64,000 bases of DNA from an uncultured Acidobacteriota bacterium. Lineage in GTDB: Bacteria; Acidobacteriota; Vicinamibacteria; Vicinamibacterales; UBA8438. The DNA lies in contig CAJWLU010000004.1 in assembly GCA_913043225.1 (NCBI GenBank), positions 153,228-217,227 of the forward strand. Direction: 5' to 3'. A model generated the notes under the pieces. It did not search any database. It was not told the DNA's origin and worked only from the letters and a program-made list of their open reading frames with translations. Shown piece by piece: positions 3,804 through 19,002 of the stretch (within the stretch, counting starts at the first letter, position 1; the number at the start of each line of letters is the position of its first letter). The translations under genes and the position numbers were made by a program.

Positions 3804-5132
3804 ATGGCTTATCGCGCGGTGTTTCGCTGTATCGCCGGGTGTCCCGGCGAACACTCCCTCTGGACTCCAATCTACCGCTGTCCGACCTGTGGCGATCTGC
3901 TCGAGGTGTGTCACGACCTCGGCGCCCTGAAGGATCGCTCCGCCATTGCCTGGATGCGGCTGTTTGACGAGCGCTACAAGCGCACCACCTGGCCCTACGG
4001 CTCGTCGGTTTGGGGCAAGAAGGAATGGGTCTGCCCCGATGTCCGAGACGAGGCAGTGGTGTCGATGGATGAGGGGGGCTCCAACCTCTTCTGGGCAGAG
4101 CGGTTCGGGCGCGATCTCGGAATGCAGGACCTGTGGGTCAAGCTGTGTGGGAACTCTCACACCGGCTCGTTCAAGGACCTCGGGATGACCGTCCTGGTGT
4201 CGGTTGTGCGTCAGATCATCCAGGACGGCGGAAACATTCGCGCCGTTGCCTGCGCCTCAACCGGCGACACGTCGGCTTCACTCGCCGCCTACGCGGCCGC
4301 CGGTGACATCCCGGCCATCGTACTGCTCCCCCGCGGAAAGGTATCGACCGCCCAGTTGCTCCAGCCAGTCGCCAACGGCGCGCTCGTTCTCGCGCTCGAC
4401 ACGGACTTCGACGGGTGCATGGCGATAGTGCAGCGGTTAAGCCAGGACGACGGTATCTATCTAGCCAACTCGATGAACAGCCTCAGACTCGAGGGCCAGA
4501 AGACGGTGGCCGTCGAGATCGTACAGCAGCTCGACTGGCAAATTCCGGACGTGGTGATCATCCCGGGCGGCAATCTCGGAAACGTTAGTGCACTCGGCGC
4601 GGGGTTCGAGCTGATGGCCGAGCTGGGATTGATCGATAAGCAGCCCCAAATCGTCGTCGCACAGGCTGCAGCCGCCAACCCGCTGTATCTCGCCTACACC
4701 CGAGGCTGGGAGTTCGAGGCAGTGGCGGCCCAACCAACCCAAGCCTCCGCCATCCAGATCGGGAACCCGGTGTCGGTCCAGAAGGCGATCCGCACCCTCA
4801 AGCGCCATCACGGCATCGTGGAGCAGGCTACCGAGGCCGAGCTTGCCGAAGCCTCGGCGCGCGCCGACCGCACCGGGATGTACAACTGCCCTCATACAGG
4901 GGTCGCACTAGCGGCATTGATCAAGCTGCGTGAACGGGGCCTGATTGACGCCTCGTCACGCGTGGTCGTGGTCTCGACGGCCAGCGGGCTGAAGTTCACT
5001 GACTTCAAGCTGGGCTATCACGAGGACGGCCTGCCTGGCGTGACGCCCGAGCACGCGAACACCCCCGTCGAGCTTCCCAACGACTACGACTCGGTGCGAA
5101 AGGCCATTGACCAGCACGCCGGCGCGCACTAG
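3804..5132 (+). CDS. thrC: Threonine synthase (paralog 2, plant-like subfamily)
   Basis: [53 protein letters not shown]. Confidence 0.9.
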
Positions 5133-6287
5133 CCGAGAAACATCTCGTAGGCGGGATTTCTGCCTTGCAACTCGAAGCGGTAGCCCAGCTGATCGAGGAA
5201 GGCCTGGAATGCATCCTCGTCCTCGTGGGACACCTCAAACGCGGCCAGCACGCGGCCGAAGTCGGCCCCATGGTTGCAGAGCAGAATACCCGGAAGGCGC
5301 CAGGACGCTGCCGGAATGGTCACCCCGAAGACCGCCTCTCGCGCCTCCCCTAACTCGGCCCGCTCGCGCAGCCGGTCGAAGTTCATGTTGGCGCCGCTCA
5401 GCACCGCCACCAGCCGCTCAACCGGCGTCTCCAAGTCGGCCGCCCAGCGCTTCATCCCGGCGACCGAGAGCGCCCCAGCAGGTTCCATGACAGCAGGGGT
5501 GTCATCGTAAATATCTTTGATGGCGGCGCAGATCTCATCGTTGGTCACCCGCACCACTAAATCGACCCTATCGCGCGCCACCTCAAACGCGGTGGCGCCC
5601 ACCTGCTCGAGCTCGACGCGCCGCCCTTCCTCCAAAGAGCGGTAGAGGGCGTCCGCGTCCATCGACTCCACCCCGATCACGAGCACTTCCGGCATCAACG
5701 CCTTGACGTAGGCGGCGATCCCCCCGATTAGCCCTCCCCCACCGACTGGCACGAACACCGCGTCGAGTCGCCCGTGGCACTGACGTCGAATCTCGTCCGC
5801 GATGGTCCCCTGCCCTGCCATGACCAGGGGATCGTCGAAGGGATGCACCGGGACCCGACCCTCCTTGGCCGCCCGCTCTTCCGCGCGACGCTCAGCCGCG
5901 GCATAGTCGTCGCCGGCCAGCTCTACTGTGACGCCGAAAGGTCTCACCGCCTCCACCTTGATGCGTGGGGTCGTTCGAGGCATCACGACCACGGCCGGCC
6001 CGCGCCGAGAACGCAACCCCCTGGGCATGATTGCCCGCGCTCGCACAGATCACGCCACGGGCACGTTCGGCATCCGTCAAATGGGCGATCCGGTTGTAGG
6101 CGCCCCGAAGCTTGAAGCTGAATACTGGCTGGAGATCCTCACGCTTGAGCAGGACCTCCGCTCTCAGCCGGGACGACAGCCCCGGTGCGACATCGAGAGG
6201 CGTCTCCCGCGCCACATCGTAGACCCGGCTACGTAGGATGTCTCGAAGAAGCCGTTCGACAGGGTCTTCTGACGACGGGAACGGCAT
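5129..6287 (-). pseudogene. ilvA: Biosynthetic threonine deaminase, disrupted
   Basis: [18 protein letters not shown] and SAGNHAQG in one frame; frameshift near 6000; internal deletions; most of the regulatory domain is missing. Confidence 0.9.
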
Positions 6288-9497: not shown

Positions 9498-10787
9498 TCA
9501 GTCCTTCTTCGCCTCGATCTGAGCGCCAAGCTGCCCCAGCCGCTCCACTAGCTGGGCATAGCCTCGCTCCACCGTCTCCAGAGGGTAGATCCTACTAACG
9601 CCGTCGGCGGCCAAAGCCGCGGCGATCAGCGCCATCCCTGATCGCAGGTCCCGACTATCGAGGGTGCGACCGGTCAAAGGCGAGGGACCGTCGACGATCA
9701 TGCGGTGAGGATCGCACAGAAACAGGTTGGCTCCCATGCCGCTCAACTGCTCGAGCGCGAACAGCCGCAGCTCATACATCCAGTCGTGCACCAGGGTGCG
9801 CCCCTCAGCCTGGGTGGCCAACACGCTGATCAGGCTCACCATATCGCTGGGAAACCCGGGCCAGGGCGCGGTCGTAATCTGGCGAACGGCGACGGGTCTG
9901 GACGCTGCTGACCGCATCACGTCGTCTTCGACCTCGCAGTCGACCTGCATTCGCTTCAGCACGGCCGTGATCGGTTCCAGGTGCCTTTGTCGCACCCCTC
10001 GCACCTCGATCTCACCGCCGCTAACCGCGGCTGCCACCACCCAGCTCCCCGCCTCGATATAGTCGCCCTCAAGGCGGTGCTCCGCGGCGCCCAGCACGCC
10101 GCCACCGGCAATCCGGATCGTCGGTGTGCCGGCCCCCTCGACCTGCGCTCCCATGGCGGACAGAAATTCACACAGCTCGATCACGTGCGGCTCGCAGGCC
10201 GCGTGCCGGATCTCACTCTCGCCATCGGCCGCTGCAGCTGCCAGGAGCGCGGTCTCGGTCCCGGTAACCGAGGCCTCCTCCAGATAGACCGACGTCGGCC
10301 GAAGCCCGTCTGGAGCCTCCAACACGTAGTCAGGACCGGTGCCCGGTCTGCGTCGGACCCCCATCGCCTCCAAGGCCTGCAGATGAGCAGCTAGCGTCCG
10401 TCGAGCTGGAAAGTCGCCACCCGGCGGCGCCAGTATGACTTGGCCTCGCCGTGCCAGCAGCGGCCCGCACAACAAGACCGACCCGCGAAGTCGACCGACC
10501 AGGCGTCGGTCTGGTTCGTGACTGCTCAGCCCGCCGCAGTTCACGCGAACCGTAGTGGTCCCTATCCCATAAACCTCCGCCCCGAGACCCGCCAACAGGT
10601 GGGCCATGACCTGGACATCCTTGATCCGAGGCATGTTGGTGAGAGTGCACTGATGCTCGGTTAGCAGGCACGCGGCCAGCAGCGGAAGCGCCGAGTTCTT
10701 GTTACCTTCGACCTCAACCTGACCGACCAGCGGATGTCCCCCCTCCACGGCCAGCGTCGTCAGTCCTTCGCCCCCCGACTTCACCAT
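9498..10787 (-). CDS. murA: UDP-GlcNAc 1-carboxyvinyltransferase (Cys-to-Asp type)
   Basis: GNKNSALP, LRGSVLL, PPGGDFPARR, SVTGTE, PWPGFPSD, DLRSG, ERGY; start uncertain. Confidence 0.95.
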   Translation of the reverse strand: MVKSGGEGLTTLAVEGGHPLVGQVEVEGNKNSALPLLAACLLTEHQCTLTNMPRIKDVQVMAHLLAGLGAEVYGIGTTTVRVNCGGLSSHEPDRRLVGRLRGSVLLCGPLLARRGQVILAPPGGDFPARRTLAAHLQALEAMGVRRRPGTGPDYVLEAPDGLRPTSVYLEEASVTGTETALLAAAAADGESEIRHAACEPHVIELCEFLSAMGAQVEGAGTPTIRIAGGGVLGAAEHRLEGDYIEAGSWVVAAAVSGGEIEVRGVRQRHLEPITAVLKRMQVDCEVEDDVMRSAASRPVAVRQITTAPWPGFPSDMVSLISVLATQAEGRTLVHDWMYELRLFALEQLSGMGANLFLCDPHRMIVDGPSPLTGRTLDSRDLRSGMALIAAALAADGVSRIYPLETVERGYAQLVERLGQLGAQIEAKKD

Positions 10788-10829
10788 GTCGTCTTCCGCT
10801 CCTCGCCCCCGAACGCTCACGCTCCAGAG

Positions 10830-11771
10830 TCAGAACTCACCCAGATACACCAGTTCCAGCCGCAGCTGGATCCCAAACCGCCGCGCTACCTCTCGCCGAC
10901 AGCGCTCTAGCAACGCACGAATGTCAGCCGCCCGAGCAGTCCCTTCATTAACGATGAAGTTCCCATGCACGGTGGACACCACCGCTCCGCCCTGCCTGCT
11001 CCCTTTAAGTCCGGCGCGGTCAATCAGCGCTCCAGCCGACCGAGGCACATCGTCCGGTAGCGGGCCATCGTCCGCACGGGGATTCTGGAATACACATCCC
11101 GCCGAGGCCCGATCGAGAGGCTGCGTCCGTTTCCGGAACGCCAACGAGTCGCGCGCCGCCAGGCGGAGGACCGCCGGATCACCTGACCGCACCGCAAACT
11201 CCACCCAGGACACCACTTCGCTGGTGTGCTTAACCCGGCTCTCGTCGTAGTCGAAGGCCATCTCGTCAGCGGACACCTCGATACGGGTGCCCGCCTCGTC
11301 TACTAGCCCGACCGCGGTCACCATATCACCCACCAGCCGACCATCGAAGTGCGCGTTGCCATGGATCGCGCCCCCGACCGTTCCTGGTGTACCGGCCCAG
11401 CTCTCCAATCCGGCCATGCCACGCCGAATGGTCCAGCGGACAAGACCGTTGAGGGTGACACCGGCGTCCGCCCGCACTCGATCGGGCCCGGTCGCATGGA
11501 GACGACCGTGCCGCAGACGCACGACAAGACCCCGAACTCCCCCGTCCCCAACGAGGACATTCGAACCACCCCCAAGGATGGTCAGCGGGATGCCCAGCGC
11601 AGCCGTCTCCCGAATCGCCGTGACCAGCTCGTCTGGTCGGTCGGTCTGGAGCAGCCAGTCAGCTGGCCCACCCGTACGAAAGGTGGTGAAAGGAACCAGT
11701 GACGCCCCGTCCCTCACCCGGGTCCCGAAGAGCTCCTTAAGGCGAGCGTTGACAAGTCCTTGGGACTCCAT
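10830..11771 (-). CDS. murB: UDP-N-acetylenolpyruvoylglucosamine reductase
   Basis: TTFRTGGPA, LGGGSNVL, PGTVGGA, SAGCVFQNP, HGNFIVN. Confidence 0.96.
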   Translation of the reverse strand: MESQGLVNARLKELFGTRVRDGASLVPFTTFRTGGPADWLLQTDRPDELVTAIRETAALGIPLTILGGGSNVLVGDGGVRGLVVRLRHGRLHATGPDRVRADAGVTLNGLVRWTIRRGMAGLESWAGTPGTVGGAIHGNAHFDGRLVGDMVTAVGLVDEAGTRIEVSADEMAFDYDESRVKHTSEVVSWVEFAVRSGDPAVLRLAARDSLAFRKRTQPLDRASAGCVFQNPRADDGPLPDDVPRSAGALIDRAGLKGSRQGGAVVSTVHGNFIVNEGTARAADIRALLERCRREVARRFGIQLRLELVYLGEF

Positions 11772-11775
11772 CACC

Positions 11776-12702
11776 TCACGCCATCCCACCCGCCTGCAAC
11801 CGCAGCGCGTCCTCACGCGATGCGAGCGCGACATGCGCGGACGAATAGCTACATGGCTTGAACTCGACCCAGTCGCCAGGGGCCAACTGGGCAGCCACCC
11901 CAACGTCAGCCGAGATAACCGTCGCCGGGGCTCGATACCCCCCTGTCGTCTGCCGGTCGGCCATCAGCAGAATCGGTTCTCCGGAGGGAGGCACCTGGAT
12001 CGTGCCGACGGGCGTGGCCGCCGACAACCCACTGGCGGGTCTCCCCGGCGAAACCGACGGTCCAGACAGCCGATATCCCATGCGATTCGACGTCGGGCCG
12101 AGACGAAAACGCGGACCGAAGAGCAGTTCAGGCCGACCGCCGCCGTCATCCCGCACGAGAACCCGCAGCACCGCACCCCCCCGTGGCAGCGGAAAGGGCG
12201 GCCGCAGCTTCTTTCCCGGTCGAGCTCCACCGTGGGGATCGCCCACGTCCAGACAATCCTCTGCTCTGAGCGAGCGACCGTCCAATCCGCCGAACCGGCT
12301 CGCCAGATCGGTACTCCGGCTGCCAAACACCATCGGCAGCTCGAAGCCTCCGGCCACCGCGAGGTAGGCTCGTGCACCGGCAGTCCGTGGTCCGAACGAC
12401 AGTCGGCCACCGGCTGAGAGCGAGAAGGTGCATCCGCTCGGTACAGTCCGGCCGTCAATTTCGAGCCAGAACCGAGCTCCGACGACCGCGATCGTCGCGT
12501 CCTCACTGAACTCCAGCTTGGGCCCGGCAAGCGTGACCTCGAGAGTAGCGGCCTCGGGCAGGTTACCCACCAAGTGATTCGCGACGCGATGCGACCACGT
12601 GTCCATCGCGCCGGAAACAGGAATCCCCCATGCCTGATGCCCCCAGCGTCCAAGGTCCTGCACCGTGGTCAATGGTCCCGGAGCAATGACACGGACCCTC
12701 AT
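11776..12702 (-). CDS. pxpC: 5-oxoprolinase subunit C / KipA (allophanate hydrolase 2) family
   Basis: TTVQDLGR, SGAMD, GARAYLAVAGG, SNRMGYRL, DRQTTGGY. Confidence 0.9.
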   Translation of the reverse strand: MRVRVIAPGPLTTVQDLGRWGHQAWGIPVSGAMDTWSHRVANHLVGNLPEAATLEVTLAGPKLEFSEDATIAVVGARFWLEIDGRTVPSGCTFSLSAGGRLSFGPRTAGARAYLAVAGGFELPMVFGSRSTDLASRFGGLDGRSLRAEDCLDVGDPHGGARPGKKLRPPFPLPRGGAVLRVLVRDDGGGRPELLFGPRFRLGPTSNRMGYRLSGPSVSPGRPASGLSAATPVGTIQVPPSGEPILLMADRQTTGGYRAPATVISADVGVAAQLAPGDWVEFKPCSYSSAHVALASREDALRLQAGGMA

Positions 12703-13403
12703 TAGCTCTCCACCACTCTGGGCTCAAACCGCACCAGATCGCCCGCACGAAATATACACGCCGGCTCAGCCTGAAGGGTAAACGGCGCGATATCGGCGGT
12801 CCCGATCAATTGCCAGCCCCCCGGCGCTGCCGACGGATAGATTCCTGTTTGTCGACCCGCAATCCCGACCGATCGCGCCGGCACCGCCAGTCGGGGCGTC
12901 GCACGTCGAGGCATAGCGATGCGACTGTCGACGACCCCCATATACGCAAACCCGGGCAAGAAACCCAGCATGAACACACGATAGTGTCCAGCCGCGTGCC
13001 GGCGCACCACCTCGTCGATCGAGCAGCCGGCAAACGCGGCAACCGCCTCGAGGTCTGGACCACCCGGTCCGCCGTACCGAACGCCTACCGTGATCTCCCG
13101 CTGTGCTTCGGCCGCCGGGGCCGACGACTCGGCCCAGCTGAGCAGGCGCCGTGACAGAACCTCGGCATCGCCCGCGACCGGATCGAGATACACGGTCACG
13201 GCGCTGTGGGTCGGCACGACATCTCGGACCCCCTCCACCCGCGCCAGCCGCACCTGTCTCGCAATCTCGACCGCTCTCGCATTCACACGCGGATCGAGGT
13301 CGGCGTCACACTCGACCACAAGAGCCGCATCGCCGCACCACCGCACGCGCCACCCGGATCTCCCGGACGACCTGCTGTCGGTCTGCCGCTCGGTCGCGCT
13401 CAC
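12702..13403 (-). CDS. pxpB: 5-oxoprolinase subunit B / KipI family
   Basis: GDAALVV, YGGPGGPDL, GFLPGFAY, QTGIYP, PGGWQLIG. Confidence 0.92.
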   Translation of the reverse strand: MSATERQTDSRSSGRSGWRVRWCGDAALVVECDADLDPRVNARAVEIARQVRLARVEGVRDVVPTHSAVTVYLDPVAGDAEVLSRRLLSWAESSAPAAEAQREITVGVRYGGPGGPDLEAVAAFAGCSIDEVVRRHAAGHYRVFMLGFLPGFAYMGVVDSRIAMPRRATPRLAVPARSVGIAGRQTGIYPSAAPGGWQLIGTADIAPFTLQAEPACIFRAGDLVRFEPRVVES

Positions 13404-14794
13404 CCGTCCGCCGCCAACCTGTCGAGAAGTTTCTGGTGGATGCCGTCGAACGAGCCGTTGGACATCACGACGACGAGATCGCCAGATATCGCTTCCGTCG
13501 CCACTGTGGCCACGATCGCCTCCACCTCGGGCAGATGCCTGGCGCGAGGCCCGTCACGGCGGATCGCGTCGACTAGTTCGGCCTCAGACAGTCGCTCCTC
13601 GTCTGGCAAGGACGCACGATACACCCGACCGACGATCACCTCGTCAGCCGCATTGAAGGCTCGTCCAAACGGATCCTGGAAGACACGACGACAGGCGGTG
13701 GCCGACCGCGGCTCGAAGAGCGCCCAGATCCGTCGGTCCGGGTGGGCCGCTCGCACCCCGGCCAACGTCTCCCGCACCGCGGTGGGGTGGTGGGCAAAGT
13801 CGTCATAGACGGTCACGCCCCGTTCGACTCCCCTCACCTCGAGCCGGCGGCGCACTCCCTTGAAGCGGGAGAGCGCGTCGGCGATCGTGGAGGCGTCGAG
13901 ACCGACATGTCGAGCCACGGCGAACGTGGCCAACGCATTTCGTACGTTGAACGCGCCGATGAGGGGAAGAGTCACTGTCGCCTCCGGTCGCCCGCCGTGG
14001 GTCACCGTAAAGCGGGTCACGTCAACATCAGCCACCAACTCCGTCGCCCTCCATTCGGCGTGCGCCCCGAGACCGAACGACTCGACCTGACACGGAGCCG
14101 CTCCCCCGAGTGCCAGCGCTTCGAGGTCGTCGGCGCCCACGATCAATCGGCCCCGGGCGGGAAGGAGCGCGACCAGACTAGCCATCGCCTGGCGGATGCC
14201 GTCGACGTCGGTATAAATGTCAGCGTGATCGAATTCCAGATTGCCGAGCACCAGCACGTCCGGGACGTACTTCAAGAACTTTGCAGTCTTGTCGAAGAAG
14301 GCGCTGTCGTACTCATCTCCTTCGATGATGAACTCGGACCCTGAACCCAGACGGTAGCTGGATCCGAAGTTACCGGTCACTCCGCCGACCAAAAAGCTGG
14401 GATCGCGCCCCCCGGCGGTCAGCACCCAGGCCAGCAGCGACGTGGTGGTTGTTTTCCCGTGGGTTCCAGCCACGACCAACGACCGGCGCTCCCAAAGAAA
14501 AGTCTCACGCACCATCTCCGGCAAAGAGCAATATCGCACCTTCCGGTCGAGCGTCGCTTCGACCTCCGGATTTCCTCGCGACACCACGTTGCCTATAACT
14601 ACCAGGTCCAACCCGTCGGTGATCCGATCCGCGTCGAAGCCATCGTGAACGGCGATATCGCGGGCGGCAAGGAAATCGGACATCGGGGGATAGACGTGCT
14701 GGTCCGATCCCTGCACCGAATAGCCCCGCTCTTGGAGCATCGCGGCCAGCGTCGCCATGGCCGTACCACAGATACCGATGAGGTGTACGGTCAT
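13400..14794 (-). CDS. mpl: Murein tripeptide ligase
   Basis: HLIGICGTAM, YPPMS, GTHGKTTT, EGDEYDSAFFDK, DDFAHHPTA, FEPRS, MSNGSF. Confidence 0.95.
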   Translation of the reverse strand: MTVHLIGICGTAMATLAAMLQERGYSVQGSDQHVYPPMSDFLAARDIAVHDGFDADRITDGLDLVVIGNVVSRGNPEVEATLDRKVRYCSLPEMVRETFLWERRSLVVAGTHGKTTTTSLLAWVLTAGGRDPSFLVGGVTGNFGSSYRLGSGSEFIIEGDEYDSAFFDKTAKFLKYVPDVLVLGNLEFDHADIYTDVDGIRQAMASLVALLPARGRLIVGADDLEALALGGAAPCQVESFGLGAHAEWRATELVADVDVTRFTVTHGGRPEATVTLPLIGAFNVRNALATFAVARHVGLDASTIADALSRFKGVRRRLEVRGVERGVTVYDDFAHHPTAVRETLAGVRAAHPDRRIWALFEPRSATACRRVFQDPFGRAFNAADEVIVGRVYRASLPDEERLSEAELVDAIRRDGPRARHLPEVEAIVATVATEAISGDLVVVMSNGSFDGIHQKLLDRLAADG

Positions 14795-15717
14795 CGCGCC
14801 TCCACGGCCGCTTCGAGCACCTCGACCTCGGCGCCTGCGCCGCCTGACACCCTCACCTCCACCCCGAGAGGCACGGTCAGGGCGGGACCACGCGTATGGC
14901 CGGTCGCGAGCCCGAACAGCACCGGCCCATCGACCGACTCGAGCAGACGGGAAAGTACTTCTCTGGCCGTCGGCGTCCCGCATTCTTCATCGCATCCGGG
15001 AAACTCTCCACACACGACGGCTGACGCCTTGGTGAGGATTCCACTTGCCGCGAGCTGAGTGATCATGCGGTCGAGTCGATACGGCCGCTCCCCGACGTCT
15101 TCCAGCAGCAGCACGTAGCCCTCGGGAGGGTCGAAGGAGTACGGCGTTCCGAGCGATGCGACCAACTGCGTTAGAGTCCCACCCAAAAGCGGTCCGGTGG
15201 CCTCGCCTCGCCTGACGACTTCAACCCCCTTTGTCGAAAGTGCTCCCATCGGGGTCTCCCCAGACACGGCAGCCAGCAGCGAGCCTCGGTCGTAGCCGGG
15301 TATCTCCTCACCCAAGTTTACGACCAAGGGTCCGTGGAAACTGACCAAGCCGCACACTCGGCCCAGATAGATCAGCAGGGCGGTCAGATCACTGTGGCCG
15401 ATGAACGGCTTGCGGGCAGCACGGAGCAGCTTGGGGTCGAGCAGTGGCAGCACCTGCGCGCTCCCGTAGCCACCGCGTATCGCCATGATGCCGGCTATAT
15501 TCGGGTCTTTCCACGCCTCGAGTAGCGATCGGGCACGAGTGGCCGGAGAGCCAGCGGTGTAGCCCAGTCGCGCGAACGCATCGCGGGCCGGCACCGGCAC
15601 AAAGCCAAGCTGCCGGATCTCGGTGACACCAGCCTCATACGTAGCCTGATCGAAGGGGCTGGCCAAGGCCACAAGCGCCACCCGGTCTCCAGGGACGAGC
15701 GGCTGCGGTTTGAGCAT
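14791..15717 (-). CDS. ldcA: LD-carboxypeptidase (peptidase S66)
   Basis: RGGYGS, GHSDLTAL, LEDVGE, GHT catalytic elements. Confidence 0.92.
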   Translation of the reverse strand: MLKPQPLVPGDRVALVALASPFDQATYEAGVTEIRQLGFVPVPARDAFARLGYTAGSPATRARSLLEAWKDPNIAGIMAIRGGYGSAQVLPLLDPKLLRAARKPFIGHSDLTALLIYLGRVCGLVSFHGPLVVNLGEEIPGYDRGSLLAAVSGETPMGALSTKGVEVVRRGEATGPLLGGTLTQLVASLGTPYSFDPPEGYVLLLEDVGERPYRLDRMITQLAASGILTKASAVVCGEFPGCDEECGTPTAREVLSRLLESVDGPVLFGLATGHTRGPALTVPLGVEVRVSGGAGAEVEVLEAAVEAR

Positions 15718-15731
15718 GAGATTCGAGGCGC

Positions 15732-16817
15732 TCAGGCCCGCGCCAGTTCCTCAGCCAACGCCCGGTGGGCATCCGTCCCCAGCCGTGCGCCAAGGGCCGC
15801 TCCCGACAGCGGACGTCGTGGTGGCAATGTAAGGAATCGCGCCTTCACATCCTCGTGGCGTGTCCACGCCGTCTCGATAGCAGCCATAGACAAACGTCCG
15901 GTTTCCACGGCTCGGATGAGCGCCTCGATCGCAGTCACGTGCTGCTCGATCCCGGACCCGCACAGCAGCAACGTGTCGCACCCGGCTTCGAAAGCCTGCA
16001 CCGCCGCCTCCGACACCGAGTGGGACGCCGTGATCGCGCCCATCTCTAGATCATCGGTGATGATCAATCCACGGTGGCCCATCTCGTGCCGTAGGACTTC
16101 GGAGATAAGCGCTCGAGACAGCGTGGCCGGCCGTTCGTCGTCAAACGCCGGATAGAGCACATGGGCGCTCATTACCGAGGCCACGTCGGCCGCAATGGCG
16201 GCTTTGAAGGGCACCAGGTCTCGAGCACGGAACCGATCCGGCGGATGTTCGACAACGGGGAGCTCGTGGTGAGAGTCGGCACGGGTGTCACCGTGCCCTG
16301 GAAAATGCTTGCCACACGCCGCAACGCCCGCCGCCTGGAGCGCCTCGATAAATGACGTCGCAAGACGGGCCGCCTGGTCAGGATCGTCGGAGAGTGCGCG
16401 GTCACCAACCACGGGGTCGGCGCCGACGTGATGGAGGTCAAGCACCGGGGCGAAATCCAACGTGACTCCGACTGCCGCCAGTTCGCTGGCCAGCGCGGTA
16501 GCCACTCGCGCACTCAGGCCGAGATCGCCGTGACGCCCCAGCGCGGCCATGGCCGGCCACTCAGTGAACGGTGCCCGGAGTCGGGCCACCCGTCCTCCCT
16601 CTTGGTCTACGCTGACCCAGAGCGGAACGTCCGAAGCCAGTTGCTGCGCGTCGTAGGCCAGTTCAGCGACCTGTTCCGGCGCCTCGATATTCCGGCTGAA
16701 CAGGATCACGCCGCCCAGCCCCCACTCCCGAGCCATTGCGGCAAGCTCGGACGGGATCGTCGGTCCCTGAAACCCAAGAATGAATAACCGACCGACGTTG
16801 CGATGGAGTGGGTTCAC
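15732..16817 (-). CDS. nagZ: Beta-N-acetylhexosaminidase (GH3)
   Basis: DQEGGRVAR, FAPVLD, KHFPGHGDTRADSH, TDDLEM. Confidence 0.95.
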   Translation of the reverse strand: MNPLHRNVGRLFILGFQGPTIPSELAAMAREWGLGGVILFSRNIEAPEQVAELAYDAQQLASDVPLWVSVDQEGGRVARLRAPFTEWPAMAALGRHGDLGLSARVATALASELAAVGVTLDFAPVLDLHHVGADPVVGDRALSDDPDQAARLATSFIEALQAAGVAACGKHFPGHGDTRADSHHELPVVEHPPDRFRARDLVPFKAAIAADVASVMSAHVLYPAFDDERPATLSRALISEVLRHEMGHRGLIITDDLEMGAITASHSVSEAAVQAFEAGCDTLLLCGSGIEQHVTAIEALIRAVETGRLSMAAIETAWTRHEDVKARFLTLPPRRPLSGAALGARLGTDAHRALAEELARA

Positions 16818-16864
16818 ACCTGCCCGCGTCTCGAAAGGCCGCCTGGCGCCGCATTGCGACGCGA

Positions 16865-16888
16865 CGGCTGCAATTATAATGCGGCCGT
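16865..16888. promoter_or_regulatory. Overlapping divergent -10 boxes inside an imperfect dyad
   Basis: TATAAT on + at 16875-16880 and on - at 16878-16873, within CGGCTGCA...TGCGGCCG. Confidence 0.6.
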
Positions 16889-17888
16889 GCTCGTCAGCTC
16901 CTCCGCGCCAACCAGGATTGACTTAGCGGGAGGAACTCTCGACATTTGGCCGCTCTACCTTTTCCACCCCGGTGCGCAAACGGTCAACGCCGCGCTTGGC
17001 ATCCGGGCCAGTTGCACCGTGCGTTCCCGTAACGACAACCGTGTCGTTCTGAGATCAAGCGACACGGGGCTCACCCTCGAAGCCGAGGATTGGCAGTCAC
17101 TCGGAACGGAGGGCGATGGCCGTCTCCTGGCCCACCTTGGCCGGTTCTTCGAGCTCTCCGGTGTCGAGGTCACTACGAACTCCGGCTCTCCGATGGGTGC
17201 CGGCATCGCAGGTTCATCGGCCCTAACCGTCGCCGTATGCGCGGCGCTGACCCGGTGGCAGCGACGCTCCCTATCGCCCGACCAGCTCCTCACGCTGGCC
17301 ATGAACCTCGAAGCTCGTACGCTGGGTATTCCGACCGGCGTCCAGGACTACCGTCCAGCGCTCTATGGAGGCGTCTCGGCAGTAGAGCTTGGCCCGCTCG
17401 GCGTAGAGCGGATCCCGCTCGAGGTCGACGTTGCCGAACTCGAGCGAAGACTCGTGCTCTGCTACAGTGGTAACTCGCGGTCCTCGGGACTCAACAACTG
17501 GGATATCACCCGTCGACACATCGAAGGAGACGAGGCGCTGGCCGCGCACTTCACCGCCCTTCGTGACATCGCGGCTGAGACCCGCCAGGCCCTGAACACA
17601 CACAACTGGCACGAACTGGCCCGGCAAATGTCGCGCGAGTGGGACACCAGACAGGCTCTGGCTCCCGGCGTGACGACCCCGGCAATCGACCGGATCCTGT
17701 CTGCTTCCCGTGCCGCCGGAGCGATGTCTGGAAAGGTCTGTGGCGCCGGGGGTGGAGGTTGCGTCTGTCTTCTAATCGACCCCGACCGGCGAGATGACGT
17801 CTATCGGAGCCTGGTCGACTCCAAGGCCCACGTGCTCGAGTGCCGTATCGACACCGATGGACTTCGAGTCGACGCTACGGAGGACTGA
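16887..17888 (+). CDS. GHMP-family sugar kinase (HddA/galactokinase-like)
   Basis: APTRIDLAGGTLD, PMGAGIAGSSA, TGVQDY, GKVCGAGGGG. Confidence 0.9.
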   Translation: MLVSSSAPTRIDLAGGTLDIWPLYLFHPGAQTVNAALGIRASCTVRSRNDNRVVLRSSDTGLTLEAEDWQSLGTEGDGRLLAHLGRFFELSGVEVTTNSGSPMGAGIAGSSALTVAVCAALTRWQRRSLSPDQLLTLAMNLEARTLGIPTGVQDYRPALYGGVSAVELGPLGVERIPLEVDVAELERRLVLCYSGNSRSSGLNNWDITRRHIEGDEALAAHFTALRDIAAETRQALNTHNWHELARQMSREWDTRQALAPGVTTPAIDRILSASRAAGAMSGKVCGAGGGGCVCLLIDPDRRDDVYRSLVDSKAHVLECRIDTDGLRVDATED

Positions 17889-18028
17889 CTCTCGGTTATG
17901 GACAACCCCTCGATCGACCGCGTGACGATTAGCCGACCCACCTGGCTCGAGCCGAATCACGTTCGTAATATGCAACCATTCGAAACGATGCAATCTTCGC
18001 TGCCCCACCATCAATGCAGGACCGTGTC

Positions 18029-18349
18029 ATGACAACCGTCGCCTCAGTACGCGCCGAGCTCAAGCGGCTGTACAACGAGACGACCCCGGCCACGATCGAG
18101 CAAGATCTGGCCCGCGCCATCGCACTCCTTAAGCAGCTCGATGATGAAGCCCAACGGGCGCAGGTTGCCGTCTATATGGACGGGCTCTCACAGATACGGT
18201 CGGAGTGGATCCTCGCAAGACGTGTAAGGGCTCGGAAGAAACATGCCACTGGCAAGATCAGCGTTAAGGCCGTCACGGCCACCGCTGGCGCCAGAAACAC
18301 CAAACGCACCGGAAAGCCCCGCCCAAAGAACAAGCACTCGTCTTCGTGA
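18029..18349 (+). CDS. Small hypothetical protein with a helical core and Lys/Arg-rich tail
   Basis: Coding-like codon use; AGGA RBS upstream. Confidence 0.7.
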   Translation: MTTVASVRAELKRLYNETTPATIEQDLARAIALLKQLDDEAQRAQVAVYMDGLSQIRSEWILARRVRARKKHATGKISVKAVTATAGARNTKRTGKPRPKNKHSSS

Positions 18350-18353
18350 CCGC

Positions 18354-18920
18354 TAAGCAGTTACGCGCTTGGGCCAGCAAGGAAACACTTCCAGGTGGAG
18401 GGCACGGACTCCGCCCGAAACATTGCGGTCGCGCGTGATCAGCTTAAGACCGCATTAGTTCAGGCGAGTCAATATCGACATCGAGACACCAGTCGGCGTC
18501 TTCGGATTCGTCACCAGGGTGGCAATCAGTGGGTAGTGTTTGAGCCAGTGACGGCTGCTGCCAACCACGCGCAGCATTTCTCGCTGCACGCTCATCATGC
18601 GAGCGCAGGGCTAGATCTCGGTGATGTCCAGTTTCGGACTCCAGAGCACCACGACGGCGACCACCTTGTTCGAATCCAAGATAAGGACCGTGCGCTGTTC
18701 ACGGACACCGCGTAACGCGATCTTGATCCAGTCGACCACCGGCATCGGAGCGAACACCTGTGGCTGTAATTCGGCAGGGTTAGGCCCAAACTGTGCCTCC
18801 CTTTGAACCACCGTCACGTCCGTGCTCATCTGGCCCAGTGCTGGCTCAATGTCTTCGAGGAGGGATACGAGCAGATCAAGTTACTCCGCCGTCTTCCAGA
18901 TCAATCCTCTAACAGCCACC
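18354..18920 (-). pseudogene. Possible decayed gene of unknown family
   Basis: One protein-like minus frame interrupted by three in-frame stops. Confidence 0.4.
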
Positions 18921-19002
18921 AGCAACTAGATGTCGAGTGGAATGGACCCTTGCGGAATAGGTCTCGGGGCGGAGTCGCACGAAGCTTGAGGAAAGCTGAG
19001 AC

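Follow-up and report, generated by a model that had tools for sequence, protein, structure and literature searches.

We analysed a 64,000-nucleotide stretch (the window) of contig CAJWLU010000004.1, positions 153,228 to 217,227, from an uncultured acidobacterium of the order Vicinamibacterales (assembly GCA_913043225.1; source genome G000, 3.85 Mb, 96% complete). Positions 9498 to 17888 of the window carry seven genes on one strand, nagZ, ldcA, mpl, pxpB, pxpC, murB and murA, and a GHMP sugar kinase gene on the other. With moderate confidence we read this block as three things side by side: a textbook cell-wall precursor operon, a passenger gene pair (pxpBC) and a separately transcribed, optional sugar kinase. 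The operon and PxpBC are ordinary, being known enzymes in an order-wide operon, and the kinase belongs to a subfamily for which we offer a tentative function below.

Gene content and layout of the block

The features of the block, with the family models that support them, are as follows.

9498..10787, minus strand: murA, UDP-GlcNAc (uridine diphosphate N-acetylglucosamine) enolpyruvyl transferase; TIGR01072, 399 bits (cut-off 393)
10830..11771, minus strand: murB, UDP-MurNAc (uridine diphosphate N-acetylmuramic acid) dehydrogenase; TIGR00179, 175 bits (cut-off 145)
11776..12702, minus strand: pxpC, 5-oxoprolinase subunit C; TIGR00724, 245 bits (cut-off 230), and Pfam CT_A_B
12702..13403, minus strand: pxpB, 5-oxoprolinase subunit B; TIGR00370, 182 bits (cut-off 146)
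13400..14794, minus strand: mpl, UDP-MurNAc:tripeptide ligase; TIGR01081, 445 bits (cut-off 389), murC model under its cut-off
14791..15717, minus strand: ldcA-type LD-carboxypeptidase (S66); PF02016 and PF17676, the S66 N and C domains
15732..16817, minus strand: nagZ, GH3 beta-N-acetylhexosaminidase; PRK05337, 271 bits (cut-off 207)
16873..16880, both strands: ATTATAAT, a -10-like hexamer whose plus-strand copy ends 6 nt before the kinase GTG, a leaderless-type layout
16887..17888, plus strand: sugar kinase of the GHMP type, in a so far uncharacterised subfamily close to HddA and fucokinase; PF00288 and PF08544

The minus-strand genes start at 16817 (nagZ), 15717 (ldcA), 14794 (mpl), 13403 (pxpB), 12702 (pxpC), 11771 (murB) and 10787 (murA). 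Read from the sequence, nagZ and ldcA are separated by 14 bp, ldcA and mpl overlap in ATGA, mpl and pxpB in GTGA, and pxpB and pxpC in TAATG; pxpC and murB lie 4 bp apart, and murB and murA 42 bp apart, or 9 bp with an upstream GTG. The kinase starts with GTG at 16887 on the plus strand, and 69 bp separate this from the nagZ start. Family scores and junction reading thus established gene identities and gene order, and bore out an earlier note on this DNA, which had described seven co-oriented, overlapping or near-abutting genes and a GHMP kinase about 70 bp away on the opposite strand. The note had also placed the usual recycling partners outside the window; tblastn with the genome's own murQ, amgK-like and murU-like proteins likewise gave no match in it. 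The ldcA-type peptidase was assigned by its Pfam S66 domains only, as it scored 119 bits with the E. coli-type ldcA equivalog, under the cut-off of 378.

The murA and murB genes are the sole copies found in G000. MurA has Asp125 at the position of the usual catalytic Cys, aligned with the D of PDB 6q0a, and Asp stands at this position in 59 of 60 relatives. Fosfomycin is reported not to bind after a Cys-to-Asp change of this kind (available part of PMC12944691). Since the genome's only MurA and 59 of 60 relatives carry Asp, intrinsic fosfomycin insensitivity is predicted across the order. We also considered that Mpl might act as MurC, for murC was not found in G000, and rejected this: the dcw contig of G000 ends inside murG, a separate murC is present in 5 of 5 closed relatives, and the missing murC is an assembly gap. 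Mpl itself scored over the cut-off of the mpl model.

Two further features of the region were seen. A threonine dehydratase-like gene (window 5129-6287) is broken over two frames near 5900-6050, as a pseudogene or by an assembly error. On the other side, polX sits in most relatives between the kinase and a conserved 111-residue open reading frame (18014-18349, no Pfam match), and window positions 17889-19000 hold no polX.

Conservation of the operon and its pxpBC passenger

Conservation was assessed by tblastn in the best 80 of 532 kinase loci, many of them shortened by contig ends, in 101 Vicinamibacterales genomes of at least 90% completeness, and in 151 genomes of the phylum Acidobacteriota. 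The phylum tallies include up to three genomes flagged as unpublished (G082, G105, G197), with no conclusion depending on any one of them, and related genomes, being kin, are not independent in co-occurrence counts. At the 80 kinase loci nagZ was found in 77, ldcA in 75, mpl in 73, murB in 61, murA in 60, and pxpB and pxpC in 59 each, in the same order and at about 45-85% protein identity. The unrelated flanking genes thiE and rnhB were equally stable (61 of the same 80 loci each). Because these are as conserved as the module, synteny inside the order is by itself no proof of shared function, and the block is in part a conserved chromosome region.

Counts over the 101 order genomes established co-occurrence directly: mpl in 92, pxpC in 86, pxpA in 85, the kinase in 77 and AnmK in none. 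The kinase lay within 8 kb of mpl in 70 of the 75 genomes with both, and pxpC within 4 kb of mpl in 60 of 79. The linkage for which the earlier note had proposed a neighbourhood survey holds in most of the order. The kinase was next to mpl or ldcA in none of 40 loci from other acidobacterial families. Similarly, in 20 mpl loci surveyed from other families ldcA adjoined mpl in 7, nagZ in 1 and the kinase in none, and pxpBC was found in 1 of 20, only the same-order one. Since mpl loci of other families mostly lack its members, the full block is a trait of Vicinamibacterales.

In 21 of 63 relatives (L043-L111, for example L044:3647-6476) the murB found in this place shares only about 30% identity with that of the window, probably an in-place replacement by another MurB type; 16 of these 21 loci have a pxpB-pxpC fusion.

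The third 5-oxoprolinase subunit gene, pxpA, scored over its cut-off at G000:C2:289447-290214, away from pxpBC. Across the order pxpA and pxpC were both present in 85 genomes, both absent in 15 and discordant in 1, and they were unlinked in most. In the 19 genomes where pxpC was not within 4 kb of mpl, it stood beside pxpA in 16; in 13 of 92 mpl carriers it was absent, and the operon persists without pxpBC. PxpBC phosphorylate L-5-oxoproline and PxpA opens the ring, according to the part of PMC13274462 available, which describes PxpABC as an L-5-oxoproline enzyme and in which the word "peptidoglycan" does not occur. As pxpA and pxpC are co-inherited, and pxpC is lost or moved together with pxpA, PxpBC would belong to a complete 5-oxoprolinase of three subunits, one that enters and leaves the operon. 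Judged by its sequence and distribution, it behaves as an ordinary 5-oxoprolinase passenger, dispensable for the operon and with predicted L-5-oxoproline activity. The proposal that PxpBC supply a missing peptide-salvage step was therefore not supported, as PxpBC tracks pxpA and not cell-wall genes. Compared with the PxpABC of PMC13274462 (part available), the genome likewise has all three subunits, with near-perfect co-occurrence across the order, but pxpBC stands apart from pxpA, between mpl and murB, and B and C are fused in 16 of 59 relatives. As a separate observation, in G113 (L285:3624-4620) the kinase gene, which lies upstream of pxpB-pxpA-pxpC, is split over two frames.

The divergent sugar kinase

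The kinase gene appears to be a unit of its own. A TANNNT box stands 4-9 nt before its start in 74 of 79 loci, compared with 0 of 80 at an in-gene control position, and a consensus promoter scan found no -35/-10 pair at the kinase. The box at this distance points to a leaderless transcript, and suggests that the kinase is transcribed separately from the operon. Only a single marine RNA run contained a small share (0.05), and its short contigs may include DNA and are unable to show an operon. At 77 loci the nagZ-kinase distance was within 150 bp in 54 and over 1 kb in 9. The kinase is absent from 17 of 92 mpl carriers in the order, including all sampled genomes of families f9 (0/8) and f18 (0/7), and each of the four kinase-less loci that were read has the whole operon, with polX as the immediate neighbour of nagZ. 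The operon does not depend on the kinase.

At the protein level both GHMP domains are present, and the nearest solved sequences are HddA/WcbL (E 8.5e-39). WcbL needs R13, D22, S118/S119, Q162 and D163 for activity (PMC4691232, in the part available), and the equivalents of these residues are kept in the kinase, invariant in alignments A1 and A2. With this catalytic set retained, the kinase probably phosphorylates a sugar at C1, the anomeric position. The subfamily is marked by GGT[LI]DxxP, PxGxQD and SGxxNW, with a conserved Trp-Pro that follows the first Asp and, in SGxxNW, a conserved Asn-Trp. A predicted model of a homologue from a Holophagae family (35% identity with the window kinase; predicted local distance difference test score 94) matched fucokinase and galactokinases best (Z 30-34), the top match being fucokinase (Z 33.8, root-mean-square deviation 2.6, 320 aligned residues), a fold likeness that shows no substrate. 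The kinase thus resembles the GHMP sugar 1-kinases HddA/WcbL and fucokinase in fold and in the Arg, Asp, Ser-Ser, Gln-Asp catalytic set, but it is about 30% identical to them, has its own motifs, occurs in single copy outside polysaccharide loci and is often found without gmhA. Counted at E 1e-30 it occurs in 92 of the 151 phylum genomes, of which G200 was dropped (its only match was HddA-type), leaving 91 carriers. The same motifs mark homologues in Bdellovibrionota (among them Bdellovibrio bacteriovorus, L179, which can be cultured), in Nitrospinota, Armatimonadota, Chloroflexota and others. Only generic names for it came from the ESM Atlas, from cluster members and from 50% representatives.

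Its neighbourhoods outside the order were surveyed in 40 loci of other acidobacterial families (two HddA-type; 140 neighbours scanned with Pfam). By tblastn mpl and ldcA were found in none, nagZ adjacent in one and 7 kb away in another, pxpBAC in one, and amgK/murU 6-7 kb away in one; in Terriglobia family f33 (L129) nagZ is divergent from the kinase. By the Pfam scan, 6 loci have an M23 endopeptidase directly upstream, 3 have pal-cpoB and 2 a nucleotidyltransferase directly downstream, and in family f40 a GalU-like nucleotidyltransferase directly follows the kinase in 7 of 7 loci. In Armatimonadota (L432) the run is namZ, BadF kinase, CCA enzyme and kinase, with the BadF kinase and namZ two and three genes upstream. 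In Anaerolineae (L439:1-12994) the kinase stands in a sugar-utilisation run of ABC transporter, kinase, major facilitator superfamily transporter, GH20 and M81 peptidase, with an oxidoreductase. Other neighbours include thymidine kinase, gap, a CAAX protease, a VTT protein, pal-cpoB, mlaC, a Gld-like ABC gene and ligA. Based on the f33, L432 and L439 cases together with nagZ, N-acetylhexosamines would be the most likely substrate class, most loci being uninformative.

In Thermoanaerobaculia-like families (L131, L134, L165) the kinase lies behind an M23 peptidase gene and carries a 280-residue C-terminal extension of no known family. A kinase-nucleotidyltransferase fusion was considered here and rejected, because the extension matched no Pfam family over cut-off.

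A putative recycling route and competing explanations

To place the block in a pathway, the usual recycling partners were sought elsewhere in G000. AmpG, Amidase_2 (the AmpD-type amidase), AnmK, BadF kinase, NagB and GmhA were not found in it. Motif scans for NagA and ROK kinases, which are weak as evidence, gave no convincing match. The glmU gene is present, cut by a contig end, and murQ scored over its cut-off in a cluster (G000:C4:59169-65657) of murQ, a GHL10 hydrolase, a serine hydrolase and two sodium:solute symporters, in the order murQ-GHL10 hydrolase-symporter-serine hydrolase-symporter. Of 80 related murQ loci, 31 include a BadF kinase and 33 a nagB gene, both of which are missing from this cluster. 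Contig C1 holds an adjacent murU-like/amgK-like pair, for which the best-matching models include AmgK and MurU, with equivalog scores under cut-off (125/250 and 132/550); amgK-like genes occur in 133 of 151 phylum genomes, in one of which namZ lies two genes upstream of the pair. A complete canonical set elsewhere in the genome would have spoken against the earlier note. Three of its six partners (MurQ, murU-like and amgK-like) are indeed present, but AmpG, Amidase_2 and AnmK were not found and the set is incomplete.

Compared with E. coli-type muropeptide recycling (AmpG, NagZ, AmpD, LdcA, Mpl, AnmK, MurQ, NagK, NagA), NagZ, an LdcA-type peptidase, Mpl and MurQ are shared, whereas AmpG, Amidase_2 and AnmK are among the genes not found and the recycling genes stand in one run with murB-murA. 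The murU-like/amgK-like pair recalls the Pseudomonas/Caulobacter MurU shunt (AnmK, MupP, AmgK, MurU; parts of PMC5371407 and PMC13046382 available), but it scores under the equivalog cut-offs and no AnmK was found to feed the shunt from anhydro-MurNAc.

We infer a single transcript of the seven genes and the following recycling flux. Muropeptides would enter by a transporter, NagZ would split off GlcNAc, an amidase would free the peptide, and LdcA would trim the tetrapeptide to the tripeptide, which Mpl would join to UDP-MurNAc supplied de novo by MurA and MurB of the same operon. Because no AnmK was found in the order, the peptide would be recycled and the anhydro-MurNAc sugar largely not, which would make co-expression of murAB and mpl sensible. 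Free MurNAc would go to the AmgK/MurU-like pair or to MurQ, and PxpBC with PxpA would clear 5-oxoproline. Our best guess for the kinase, offered tentatively, is a GlcNAc/MurNAc 1-kinase: it may turn NagZ-released GlcNAc into GlcNAc-1-phosphate, passed on to GlmU and then MurA, with MurNAc-1-phosphate as the alternative product.

Several substitutions by the kinase were considered and set aside. Replacement of AmgK was rejected in view of the amgK-like gene in G000 and in 85 of the 91 kinase carriers, and replacement of a lipopolysaccharide heptose kinase in view of the rfaE/hldA-like gene in a lipid A/core cluster. A role as MurNAc 6-kinase for MurQ was also rejected, a BadF kinase being present in the 31 murQ loci noted above, among them loci from 5 of the 14 genomes in which a kinase locus was obtained as well. 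The lipid A/core cluster (G000:C3:201347-208880) holds rfaE-like kinase, gmhB-like and heptosyltransferase-like genes.

A number of observations weigh against what we propose for the kinase and for PxpBC. In the phylum the kinase does not track mpl (both 42, kinase only 49, mpl only 25, neither 35), the majority of kinase loci outside the order lack an amino-sugar neighbour, an amino-sugar context was seen in only 2 of 24 further loci outside the order (27 of their proteins scanned with Pfam), and no module gene was matched at the 12 Bdellovibrionota and 7 Nitrospinota loci (scan of 65 of the 144 neighbours listed). Pseudomonas AmgK phosphorylates both MurNAc and GlcNAc at C1 (PMC5371407, part available), and because 85 of the 91 carriers have an AmgK-like gene, a GlcNAc/MurNAc 1-kinase job may be redundant. 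As to PxpBC, 27 of 33 phylum pxpC carriers have mpl, and in family f51 kinase, pxpB, pxpA and pxpC form one run in 3 of 3 loci, which hints that the linkage may not be accidental, though with little weight, as kin are not independent. A possible place for the kinase in amino-sugar salvage has some independent neighbourhood support; its link to mpl and ldcA was not kept in the 40 loci of other acidobacterial families.

Three other explanations were weighed. The kinase may have nothing to do with the cell wall and salvage another sugar (a uronic acid, heptose or deoxy sugar), as a housekeeping enzyme whose gene stands near nagZ by ancestral synteny; we regard this as a serious possibility, though short of an even chance. 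Its neighbours elsewhere are varied, the flanking housekeeping genes are as syntenic as the module, the best fold matches of the modelled homologue are fucokinase and galactokinases, and in Terriglobales family f45 a nagZ-anmK pair lies 9-13 kb from the kinase, which fits a shared ancestry of the region. Yet in four lineages of three phyla (Vicinamibacterales, f33, L432 and L439) the kinase stands at most three genes from an N-acetylhexosaminidase or N-acetylmuramidase, by rough judgement more than expected. A separate possibility is a heptose 7-phosphate kinase of the HddA/WcbL type, the label that the kinase often bears. The closest solved sequences and the retained catalytic residues fit this, but it scored only 127.8 bits with the HddA model NF049969 (cut-off 600), its subfamily motifs differ, and no hddC or gmhB adjoins it, unlike the HddA-type loci L160 and L161, which form their own long branch (SH-aLRT 100) in a quick protein tree with many open forks, used only for this separation. 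GmhA, the source of the heptose substrate, was not found in 36 of the 91 carriers, which makes an HddA function unlikely; nor was it found in G000 or in any of three other family members, despite the lipid A/core cluster of G000. We consider the heptose kinase very improbable and the common label a likely mislabel for what looks like an orphan sugar 1-kinase subfamily.

It is also improbable, if slightly less so, that the kinase and PxpBC serve specifically in a recycling route not yet described, with the kinase in place of AnmK and PxpBC salvaging the cyclised glutamate of stem peptides. The absence of AnmK from all 101 order genomes against 92 with mpl, the linkage of kinase and pxpC to mpl, and the f51 and 27-of-33 observations would fit it. 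However, kinase and AnmK occur together in 46 of the 151 phylum genomes and are both missing from 45 (kinase only 45, AnmK only 15), which makes a replacement of AnmK unlikely, and 24 of the 101 order genomes have neither. Anhydro-MurNAc has no free 1-OH, which a WcbL-type site needs. The loss or movement of pxpBC along with pxpA, and the description of PxpABC as an L-5-oxoproline enzyme, speak against it too. The idea of the kinase as a missing recycling step thus mostly fails, the kinase being absent from some mpl carriers and coexisting with AnmK and AmgK-like genes.

Soil and marine samples are rich in Vicinamibacterales. Their retention of nagZ, ldcA and mpl, with no AnmK found in 101 genomes, raises the question of muropeptide import and of the fate of anhydro-MurNAc, and recycling routes outside the gammaproteobacteria still vary (parts of PMC13691567 and PMC13046382 available). 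No published description of the locus or of the kinase family was found in the literature searched, which lay outside subscription papers and supplements; no paper was found that joins a GHMP kinase with peptidoglycan recycling, and none, judged by title and the start of the abstract, that links 5-oxoprolinase pxpB to peptidoglycan. Several phyla conserve the kinase as a single-copy orphan, and assigning its function, for which the Anaerolineae run (L439) is a good place to infer the substrate, would correct a common mislabel. We suggest, as a possibility with the balance against it, that it represents an undescribed GHMP family of N-acetylhexosamine 1-kinases that act on GlcNAc or MurNAc, have a fold unrelated to that of AmgK and bear a wrong heptose kinase label, with members in Acidobacteriota, Bdellovibrionota, Nitrospinota, Armatimonadota and Chloroflexota. 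In Vicinamibacterales such an enzyme may lead NagZ-derived GlcNAc directly back to UDP-GlcNAc, the substrate of MurA, and wall recycling in this order would do without AmpG, AmpD and AnmK.

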